Sequence record: NC_049919.1
Length of the DNA stretch: 61,564 nucleotides
Direction: 5' to 3' (one strand)
Source: Escherichia phage SH2026Stx1
Part shown: one piece after another, positions 9,001 to 12,000 of the stretch
How the letters are laid out: each line of letters opens with the position of its first letter
How positions within the stretch are numbered: the first letter of the stretch is position 1
Made by a program: the position numbers

Positions 9001-12000
9001 CGACTATGCGGCCTCGGAAGGAAGTCCAATCATCTTATTCAAATCTTCTACCCGTAAAGCAGGAAGTGCTGTACTTGCTTTATCTGCTTCTTTTGGTAGC
9101 AATTCTTTGCTTTCAGGCCAAACTTCAATAAGTCGCTTAACTGTTGTGACTGAGTTCAAAGCAGCCCATACATTTGATTCGATATCCTTTTTCTTGGCTT
9201 CAAGTTTTTGTTGCAATGCGCAGATTTCATCAAACCTTTTTGTTATTTCGTGTTCTGCGTCAAACATGCATTTATCTTTGATCGGAGTAGGGAGCAATAT
9301 ATCTTTGCCGTTGCCGTCTTTCCCATATGAATGCCATCCAACCCTTCTGCCAGATACAGTCAGATAAATTGAAGTAGAACTAACATCGTATGAGTAAAAT
9401 GAACATCCCATCTTTCCAAGTTCTTCACTTATAGCTACCAACTTGGATGATAACTGATCCACTTCCTCAGTTTTCTTTTTACCGCCAAACGCAATAACTC
9501 TGGCGTCAAGTGCAAGCTGGTTCTTTAACTTTGTTACTTCTTCAAGTTCAGTGAACACCCCGGACTTAATTAAAGCGTTACGAGCGATTTCCTCTTTCAT
9601 TCTCGTAGTTAAGCGGATTGATGACATATTAATTCCTCTCAAATAAGTGGTTTGCTGCCTAATTTCATTTTCTGGCGACCAACACAAGTCACACCCATTT
9701 CACTGCGTGGCTTGCGGTAGTAAATACGGTTCTGTTTACGCTCGACCTCTTCTGACTTTGACTTCTTGCAGCGAAGGCTTCCGAGTGATATTGCTTTTTC
9801 AGAAAGGCTTAAACGCTTTCTCGGGGCTTCCTGAACAGCTTCCTCACTGTCTGTGCCGAAGATCGAATCGATGATGTTGCAGATGGAATCACGCTCGATA
9901 GCCAGCTTTCTGCGCCGCTCATGACGGCGAGTTTTGGCATTTCCTGCGAATGTTGATTTCCCGTACACGATTACCGTCATGATATTTTCCTCATGTGAAA
10001 TGGCTTTGGTGGTGATGCGCCAGATGCTGATCTTCTGGTTGCTGTCGTTGCTGCTGCAATTCACATCACCGCCAAACCCATCTCGTTTGGTATCTGTTTG
10101 CGCTTTGTCAGCGCCACATCGAAGTTAAAGAGCCTGCCAATCTGTTCCGTTTGGCTACCAGCGTCCTGCTGATGGCTTAAAGATAACCCAGGTTATAGGT
10201 GTGGTCAATAACTTAATTTATAATTCATGGTAAATAAGTTATAAATAATGGATAACAAAGGTATTTTATTTTTGTAAATGTTGAGGATGAAGGTGATGGG
10301 GCAGGGATCATAACTGCATGGTTTAGCGAGTTACATCAATAAATACAATTGGTTATGTTTTTTAGGTGGGGGGATCGTAAGGCAAAGAAAACCCGGCTCG
10401 GTGGCCGGGTTTGAGATTTAGTTATTTTCAGCAGCTCGGATAAGAGCGGAAGTGCTGACGAACATGTTCGAGCTCACCGAAACGTATGCGGCAGTAACTG
10501 CGCACATAAACCGGCTTGTCGTGTTCGTAGATGAAGTCATCGCGATTAACATCGTGAGCCATAGCTTTTCTCCTGTTTTTGTATACAGCCTGTTTACCCG
10601 AACAGGTTGTAGTTTGTTGGGAGAACCGCTATCCTTGGCTTGCGGTTGCCAAGGGTGTAGCGGTAGGTAATCCTCCATACACTTCGGAAATACTGGATAT
10701 ATTTCCGACCCAAAAAGCCCCGTTCCCTCGGGGCTTTATTCTTTTGTTCCGCCATCAATCATCGCAAAAGATTCCACAATCAGACTGATACGCTTGGCTT
10801 CATCTTTTGTCAGGTCGCGAGGCAGGTTGCCAATGGTGACGATAAGATCTCCGCGCAATGGAATCGGCAGTTCAAATGTTTTTACACCAACCTGTACGTC
10901 AGCTACCGCCTTCTTCTTAGGTGCCATCTTTTTACGCTCCTTTTTTTTATTTACATCACCAACTGACACATTAATCTCACCATTCTGGTAGGAGATAAAT
11001 TTATCAATAGCACTTTGCATCCGGCTTTTGTATGCCTGCAAAGATGATTCAGAGGGTTTGCTTTCTGCTGAGTCTGCGTACGAACTTGCTAAGTTGGCAA
11101 CGCTATAATCACGGATATCGGCATCGGTGAAATCCGACCCAAGAACAGTAAGAAGGCGCAGGGAAGAGTCACGGAGATTGCGGGCTGTAGCATCATTGAC
11201 GATACCAAGCTCAGGAAGCATCTGTAAGAAGTCCTGAAATGCTTTGATGGTGTAGCTTTTGGTTTGCATAAAAAAGCCTCATACAGTTGATGAGGCAATA
11301 CTAATTTGATCGTCAAAACAAATCAAGACCCAAGAAACGATCGTTGATTCCTTTCTTTGTGACAATACAGTCAAATCAAGTTTTACAAGGATTACTTTTC
11401 TTCGATTACATTAAAAGCCGCACTTCTGCGACCATCCATCACCCAAATGTCTCTTCACTCATCCGAAGAAGCAGCAATCCGGGTCAGCACGCACAAGCTC
11501 AAGCGCATCAGTCAGCGAAAGTTCAGTACTGTACTGATGCCATTTCATATCCTTCCGCATCCAATAGATTTTCCATCTATCCAGAGAACGTATGTACTTG
11601 ATTCTTGCTGATGGCAGGATGTTTGTTTCACCTGGGTTGCCCTGCCACACGGGGCGCTGTTCGCCGATATCTATCGTTTGGTCATTGATGCTATAAACAA
11701 TATCCAGTTCATTGCGGATATGTTCAGGCGGCCTTATGCTTTCAATGAATTGGTGAACTTCTTTTTTGACCGCTTGATATTCAAGGTCAGTGAACGCCAT
11801 CTATCCTCCTCACCCAAACGTTTCTTCAGGCCACTGGTTACCAGCTATGTGATGACCAGAATACTCTGCCAATAATCCTTACTGTTTCATGAAACTCATC
11901 TCTATCCATTACTTCATCAGGGTACTCTTCGCGATTTATTGATCTGATTATCACGGATGTAGGTGTGGCTATTAATGTCTTTACTCTTAGTAAATCAGAT

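Follow-up and report, generated by a model that had tools for sequence, protein, structure and literature searches.

Here, we analyse a gene at positions 9004-9627 (minus strand) of Escherichia phage SH2026Stx1 (sequence record NC_049919.1), which almost certainly encodes a member of the Nmad5 protein family and is located at the start of the early-left operon. The window, i.e., the whole stretch of 61,564 nucleotides (nt), represents a lambdoid Stx1-converting prophage and is nearly identical to phage Stx1_JNE110649 over the tested stretch. The open reading frame (ORF) runs from an ATG at 9627 to a TAG at 9004 and encodes 207 amino acids (aa). It follows the N antiterminator gene (9639-9980, minus strand, 113 aa), whose product matches the Pfam model N_peptide (PF25694, E = 8e-26) as well as PHROG 271 (E = 1.4e-46) and bears a P22-type arginine-rich motif, GNAKTRRHERRRKLAIER. 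ORF calls and the upstream N_peptide match bear out a sequence-only reading of this DNA, which had described a 207-aa ORF as the first gene after N. It starts 11 bp beyond the N stop codon, and its Shine-Dalgarno sequence GAGAGGA (9634-9640, minus strand) overlaps this stop and ends 6 nt before the ATG. A 227-aa reading from a TTG at 9687 was dropped, since the ATG at 9627 has the Shine-Dalgarno sequence, a Pfam match from residue 4 and the agreement of homologues. A 129-aa antisense ORF (8978-9367) was likewise dropped in favour of the ORF starting at 9627, and the only Rfam match of the region, on the antisense strand, is below threshold and attributable to chance.

Upstream of N, a pL-like sigma-70 promoter was found at 10180-10208 on the minus strand (TTGACC, a 17-nt spacer and TATCTT), which is a consensus match only; a consensus scan of 8850-10800 gave no further promoter-like site. 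A nutL-like site (10100-10133, minus strand) comprises a boxA-like element, GCTCTTTAAC (10133-10124), and the boxB hairpin GCGCTGACAAAGCGC (10114-10100). This boxB, which we take to be that of P22, matches exactly at a single site of the window, against 0 sites expected by chance. On the distal side, the terminator scan located an intrinsic terminator at 8987-9015 (minus strand) with a 7-bp stem (GAGGCCG/CGGCCTT) and a T-run, overlapping the stop codon of the Nmad5 gene. This hairpin has a short stem and a folding energy that does not stand out (RNA fold of -13 kcal/mol, z-score only -1.4). Its sequence occurs exactly in 34 of 82 alleles and is changed at 1-3 positions in most others.

Since the gene sits between N and this terminator, it is presumably co-transcribed with N from pL before antitermination is needed. 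The hairpin at the stop codon may represent the tL1-like end of the immediate-early transcript; if it does terminate, N and the Nmad5 gene together would form an N-independent immediate-early pL transcript. In lambda, the immediate-early pL stage yields N only, and ral needs N-mediated antitermination, whereas the Nmad5 gene precedes the first terminator. In a lysogen, the gene should be silent, because the pL-like promoter is the only one found upstream. The claim of an early gene is thereby supported more strongly than it had been made, by the position between N and a conserved terminator and by the link to N and pL.

Many E. coli prophages without Nmad5 share the same boundary of 45-58 nt, which there follows other cargo, in one prophage next to the anti-restriction gene ral. 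The slot between N and cIII is thus a mosaic exchange point, and the earlier comparison with the lambda cargo slot holds. The neighbourhood is the one that carries ral and sieB in lambda and the ral and gene 17 region in P22, and Ral occupies the slot in some related prophages. However, neither in sequence nor in fold do Ral and SieB resemble the Nmad5 protein. Relatives with 34-58% identity occur in prophages of Klebsiella, Serratia, Providencia and Aeromonas, where they open the early-left operon or lie close to its start and are neighbours of the repressor gene.

The assignment to the family rests on an end-to-end match to Pfam PF18757 (Nmad5; E = 3.1e-71, 240.2 bits versus a cut-off of 27), in which residues 4-203 align to profile positions 1-206 of 206. 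A second match, to PHROG 1965 (E = 3e-83), carries no assigned function in that collection. Thus, the sequence-only reading was wrong in stating that the protein has no recognisable motif. The gene is already catalogued: RefSeq has a gene with the same DNA (100% identity), whose product WP_000095080.1 is called "Nmad5 family putative nucleotide modification protein", a name that NCBI gives to many homologues. The domain (PF18757 / IPR040835, nucleotide modification associated domain 5) goes back to a computational definition by Iyer, Zhang, Burroughs and Aravind in 2013, as cited in PMC11846954. The window protein shares with the family the full-length match, the N-terminal R-L-T, the C-terminal W-P-E, L-N and G-L-P elements and the same predicted fold. 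In contrast to what the family name suggests, this lambdoid prophage has the gene by itself behind N, and no modification enzymes are encoded beside it. Membership stands nonetheless, because the association with modification is a contextual attribute of the name and not a sequence criterion.

The protein is lysine-rich (23 of 207 residues, 11%), near-neutral with an isoelectric point of 7.6, and soluble-looking, as had been noted before; the highest 19-residue Kyte-Doolittle mean is 0.6, and over all 207 aa no hydrophobic or membrane segment was detected by this measure. An AlphaFold2 model built on an alignment of 147 sequences reaches a pLDDT of 92.4 and a pTM of 0.84. At the N-terminus, it has three long helices; a beta-hairpin subdomain and a fourth long helix follow, and short helices make up the C-terminus. 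The earlier description as a coiled coil is no more than an approximation, as the model shows an intramolecular bundle of long helices with a beta-hairpin insert and small C-terminal helices. Remote homology and structure prediction, proposed earlier as a check, thus gave the Nmad5 family and a confident model, but no relative in the PDB: Foldseek returned nothing under E = 0.7 for the model, and sequence and profile searches of the PDB no match to the protein. In BFVD, the best Foldseek match has E = 7.3e-13 and a TM score of 0.75. At E <= 0.001, every match there that carries a name is either Nmad5 or an unnamed conserved phage protein, the other matches are nameless, and no named family other than Nmad5 occurs at this threshold. 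Neither an NCBIfam scan nor a PADLOC scan gave a match, and no similarity to known anti-defence families (Ral, Ocr, ArdA, Gam etc.) was seen in Pfam, NCBIfam, PADLOC or the PDB.

Conservation was assessed in a set of 147 family sequences with less than 60% identity. Conserved positions are mostly G, P, L and W, and the polar ones are R5, K21, R43, T162, E172, E175 and N197. The signature residues, which are conserved at least 80-100% across the set, are all present in the window protein: the N-terminal R-L, A18, R43, G48-G49, G93, T162, L166, W170-P171-E172, L176, P178, L196-N197 and G201. Conservation peaks in the C-terminal part with T-x-K-[KR]-L-x-x-W-P-E-x-x-E-L-L-P ... L-P ... L-N-x-x-I-G-L-P. 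A conserved constellation of His, Asp, Cys or Ser is absent from the 147 sequences, and because there is no conserved catalytic residue set, we infer a binding protein rather than an enzyme.

A side observation concerns the very C-terminus, which reads ...PSEAA (9004-9018). Endings of -EAA or -QAA are frequent among close enterobacterial homologues and, speculatively, bear a loose resemblance to an ssrA-like ClpXP degradation tag. This type of ending is not kept across the wider family.

The median ratio of non-synonymous to synonymous substitution (dN/dS) is 0.26 over 34 allele comparisons (61 distinct alleles), which argues for a real functional gene under purifying selection. An intact copy is present in 209 of 5426 complete E. 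coli genomes (approximately 4%), and the gene occurs in unrelated lambdoid backgrounds, i.e., HK542, mEp235, the P22-like Kapi1 and Stx1a phages, which differ in their recombination modules (Erf/Abc2, RecT, Red). In total, the family comprises 2305 representative clusters at E <= 0.001, mostly stand-alone proteins of about 200 aa. Virulent phages often carry Nmad5, among them the N4-like Pylasvirus group and Dhillonvirus. N4 itself is not among the matches listed; since the gene is found in the Pylasvirus-type subgroup and N4 is not listed, Nmad5 does not appear to be a core gene of N4-like phages.

Adjacent to the gene lies the IS66-family insertion sequence (IS) ISEc8 (2442 bp, 6514-8955, minus strand, the same orientation as pL transcription), named after the RefSeq names of identical copies. 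It carries tnpA (8483-8884), tnpB (8139-8486) and the transposase ORF (6551-8089). Its junctions were mapped against the IS-free prophage of E. coli 2014C-3061 and are flanked by an 8-bp target duplication, ACACAGTG (left copy 6506-6513, right copy 8956-8963). The adjacency to an IS66 insertion, stated in the sequence-only reading, is hence accurate, the element ending 48 bp from the Nmad5 stop codon. It landed in the non-coding spacer between Nmad5 and cIII, breaks no ORF and leaves both gene and terminator intact; polar effects of the element on cIII, kil, gam, bet and exo are possible. The same junction is found in 3 of 82 close relatives, the window counted.

A different situation was found in Stx2a-converting phages, where the gene is split after approximately codon 36 by an IS629-like element of the IS3 family. 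By tblastn, this truncation is present in 48 records, one of which was looked at in detail: in the Stx2a phage Stx2_06E050, the split gene and the element (OrfA 108 aa, OrfB 296 aa) span 1089-3025. This splitting indicates that the gene is probably dispensable. With ISEc8 here and the IS629-like element in Stx2a phages, independent IS insertions cluster in or beside the Nmad5 gene in prophages of enterohaemorrhagic E. coli. Apart from this, an IS629-like remnant at 1730-2330 of the window, with a 131-aa OrfB fragment (1884-2279), shows that the prophage left arm carries a second, degraded IS, and the 3' end of an Ead/Ea22-like ORF (2086-3264, minus strand) runs into IS-derived sequence.

The genomic company of distant relatives was surveyed in 80 distant viral loci, which were collapsed to 35 groups by Nmad5 identity; 144 same-strand neighbour ORFs were compared with Pfam. 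As the first viral scan had recovered near-identical E. coli prophages only, it was repeated with a distant member first for the sake of diversity. A DUF2800 PD-(D/E)XK nuclease is encoded near Nmad5 in 15 of the 35 loci, an Enc34/gp2.5-type single-stranded DNA (ssDNA)-binding protein in 14, typically immediately upstream, and PolA just downstream in 11. CI-like repressors stand beside it in seven loci. This set is the duf2800-gp2.5-polA module, known from work on phage annealing proteins (PMC8093625), and Nmad5 is a frequent fourth member of it: distant Nmad5 genes lie between the gp2.5-like ssDNA-binding gene and polA. The window lacks this module and has lambda-type exo, bet and gam together with an O-like initiator and a DnaB-like helicase instead. 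Exonuclease genes of several types abut Nmad5 elsewhere, namely a Cas4-like one in the N4-like phage MY01, an Rv2179c-like one at locus L104, an RNase T-like one at locus L107 and an annotated exonuclease in phage R5C.

Modification genes are rare in this company. A modification-type enzyme is found near Nmad5 in only one of the 35 loci, and neither thymidylate synthase nor aGPT-Pplase nor kinase is among the top 25 neighbour families of these loci. In several temperate relatives, a DNA methyltransferase is encoded one to four genes downstream. In M6, YuA and SN1, Nmad5 is located inside the thymidine-hypermodification cassette known from phages of this type (PMC9476957), between aGPT-Pplase1 and the pyrimidine hydroxymethylase. 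Taken together, the shared theme of the Nmad5 contexts is early DNA metabolism and not base modification. This has a bearing on the sequence-only reading, in which homology to a known recombination or replication accessory protein was to speak against an anti-defence or exclusion role. What we find is homology to Nmad5, a family without known function and thus not strictly such a protein, although the context of the distant relatives in the duf2800-gp2.5-polA module comes close to it.

Two single loci deserve mention in their own right. On L107 (6001-10789), a metagenomic Pam3-like phage contig, Nmad5 is located directly upstream of the RNase T-like exonuclease, and further genes encode a PurZ-like adenylosuccinate-synthetase homologue, a dGTP/dATP pyrophosphohydrolase and an HD-domain protein, i.e., the 2-aminoadenine (Z) DNA set PurZ, MazZ and DatZ. 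In Salmonella phage SPN3UB (3049-5621), Nmad5 resides in the nin region, two genes after a "queuine tRNA-ribosyltransferase"; going by this annotation, the latter might be a DpdA-like enzyme that modifies DNA, but no Pfam model matches it.

A literature search by family and protein identifiers returned nothing. A match for HK542 was set aside, as it concerns OLD and tRNAs and not the Nmad5 gene, and so was a DefensePredictor lead to a validated defence system with an "NMAD" domain, since the supplement shows Nmad2 (PF18753) and not Nmad5. The only experiment on the family that we found in the literature is that of Yamashita et al. (PMC11846954) on Dhillonvirus mutants escaping the Tmn defence, which carry the Nmad5 exchange K296E (SM_S22) or K216E (SM_A8). 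Reverting the change restores Tmn sensitivity, while deleting nmad5 gives no escape; the gene could not be cloned and was apparently toxic (PMC11846954). The Dhillonvirus proteins (SM_S22 CDS6, SM_A8) belong to the same Pfam family (SECphi18 homologue: E = 1.3e-57), and their C-terminal half is 33% identical to the window protein. In contrast to the latter, they are longer, with 254 aa (annotated for SM_A8 and SECphi18) or 334 aa (SM_S22), and have a large insert in the beta region; moreover, their gene is located alone on the opposite strand among head genes. Both escape sites align with R165 of the window protein, within the T-x-K-[KR]-L-x-x-W-P-E motif. As judged from this alignment, the escape site marks the C-terminal motif as functionally important and ties the family to host immunity. 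The data do not make Nmad5 a simple inhibitor or a simple trigger: because deletion leaves sensitivity unchanged and only the Lys-to-Glu exchange escapes, the wild-type Dhillonvirus protein is not a Tmn inhibitor. Its apparent toxicity fits with a host process as the target.

From these observations, we hold it plausible, if not quite probable, that the protein has no catalytic activity and serves phage DNA metabolism as an immediate-early accessory factor, which binds DNA or a conserved component of replication or recombination. Such a helical scaffold would be produced as soon as the lytic programme sets in, from a pL transcript that also covers N and ends at the first terminator. The scaffold would bind a partner rather than do chemistry, via a putative conserved basic patch (R5, K21, R43, K164/R165) and the conserved C-terminal motif. 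Its partner would be the phage DNA or a conserved DNA replication or recombination component, engaged as phage DNA metabolism begins. A phage-specific polymerase is excluded as the partner, because Nmad5 occurs with PolA modules and also in lambdoid phages, which use largely the host replisome. A partner common to phages with very different replication machinery would therefore be DNA itself or a host protein.

Several points weigh against this proposal. The mechanism is based on gene context and conservation alone, and the clustering of the conserved basic residues on one surface is a supposition from conservation. The lambdoid members, the present one included, have no adjacent nuclease, ssDNA-binding or PolA module, so that their role could differ from that of the module-embedded relatives. 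Any role is probably dispensable in view of the IS629-like split in Stx2a phages. Finally, the 35 loci were recruited by one peptide pattern from one viral collection, and the neighbour frequencies may be biased.

The accessory role in DNA metabolism competes first of all with an anti-defence function, which we regard as possible, if doubtful: the protein would be made first and would bind, and thereby neutralise, a host immunity or nuclease system, as do Ocr, Ral, Gam and T7 gp5.9. The immediate-early position is in line with this, as are the mosaic slot, which holds other cargo elsewhere and once lies next to Ral, the patchy, accessory-like spread across unrelated phage groups and the probable dispensability. 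The nuclease inhibitors Gam and T7 gp5.9 also sit within recombination or replication modules, and the module context of the relatives is hence compatible with anti-defence as well. The genetic interaction of a family member with Tmn (PMC11846954) has to be read together with its details, as the nmad5 deletion left Tmn sensitivity unchanged and the Lys-to-Glu exchange alone escaped. Further objections are that no known anti-defence protein is similar and PADLOC gives no match, that the window already encodes Gam, and that a family of 2305 clusters keeps its motif over deep divergence, which is unusual in an arms race. Of the earlier suggestion of an anti-defence or exclusion factor, the early slot remains in its favour, while the missing PADLOC match and inhibitor similarity speak against it and exclusion is disfavoured.

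A more far-reaching version, which we consider unlikely, combines both ideas. Here, Nmad5 would represent a structurally new class of immediate-early protein at the interface of phage DNA metabolism and host immunity, whose basic C-terminal motif engages a host factor, an interaction that Tmn-type defences would monitor or that would serve the phage to disarm a host nuclease. If this were true, the label "nucleotide modification" would be a misnomer, and HK542 and mEp235 would provide a tractable E. coli K-12 system for a widespread, unrecognised host-takeover or counter-defence function.

The family name itself suggests a component of a nucleotide or DNA base-modification pathway, e.g., an accessory subunit of DNA-modifying enzymes, which seems improbable to us. 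The name, given by both NCBI and Pfam, rests on the base-modification association of a minority of members. These are found within the hypermodification cassette of M6/YuA/SN1-type phages (PMC9476957), in one case beside the PurZ, MazZ and DatZ genes, and in several temperate phages within one to four genes of a DNA methyltransferase. The M6/YuA/SN1 proteins are of the same Pfam family (E = 3.4e-33), but have 186 aa, and just their last approximately 87 residues align by BLAST with about 30% identity. Their cassette of aGPT-Pplase, kinase, radical-SAM and hydroxymethylase genes next to PolA has no counterpart in the pL operon of the window, which contains no modification genes; only a distal Dam-type methylase was found (18113-18667, nin region, approximately 9 kb from the Nmad5 gene). 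The gene is likewise carried on its own in HK542, mEp235 and Kapi1. Neither a catalytic residue set nor an enzyme-like fold is seen in the protein, and the single locus of 35 with a modification-type enzyme also argues against a modification role.

The region between N and cIII carries sieB in lambda, and this position, and nothing else, favours a superinfection-exclusion or lysogenic-conversion factor made from the prophage, like SieB or Rex; with a repressible pL-like promoter as the only promoter-like site upstream, the packing 11 bp behind N on a common transcript, a protein without membrane segment and the abundance of Nmad5 in virulent phages, such a role is very hard to credit.

Independent of the reading, a stand-alone, presumably immediate-early Nmad5 gene exists in lambdoid phages, and E. 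coli K-12 is a host for some of these (HK542, mEp235). Since such K-12 lambdoid carriers exist and R165 matches the published escape site, the function of Nmad5 should be accessible to simple phage genetics.

The remaining genes of the prophage are arranged as follows. The integrase gene is located at 145-1389. Past the IS, cIII (6168-6332, minus strand; Pfam Lambda_CIII, E = 1.5e-30) is the first delayed-early gene, followed in order by kil, gam, bet and exo, as deduced from the IS-free relative and the ORFs of the window. The CI-like repressor is encoded at 11838-12575 (minus strand) and the Stx1 A subunit at 24008-24964. The O-like initiator and the DnaB-like helicase are accompanied by NinB, NinG and Q.

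Inside the nin region, an ORF of 590 aa (19350-21122, minus strand) runs on the opposite strand. It has no Pfam match, its equivalent in E. coli 2014C-3061 is a "hypothetical protein" in RefSeq, and it looks like a moron with unassigned function. Three further minus-strand genes are located between the repressor gene and pL (10428-11800), the position of rexAB in lambda. They encode a DUF3024 protein (11459-11800), a 177-aa protein without Pfam match (10736-11269) and a 44-aa ORF (10428-10562), which is followed by a strong terminator (10412-10389). All three are candidates for expression in the lysogen.

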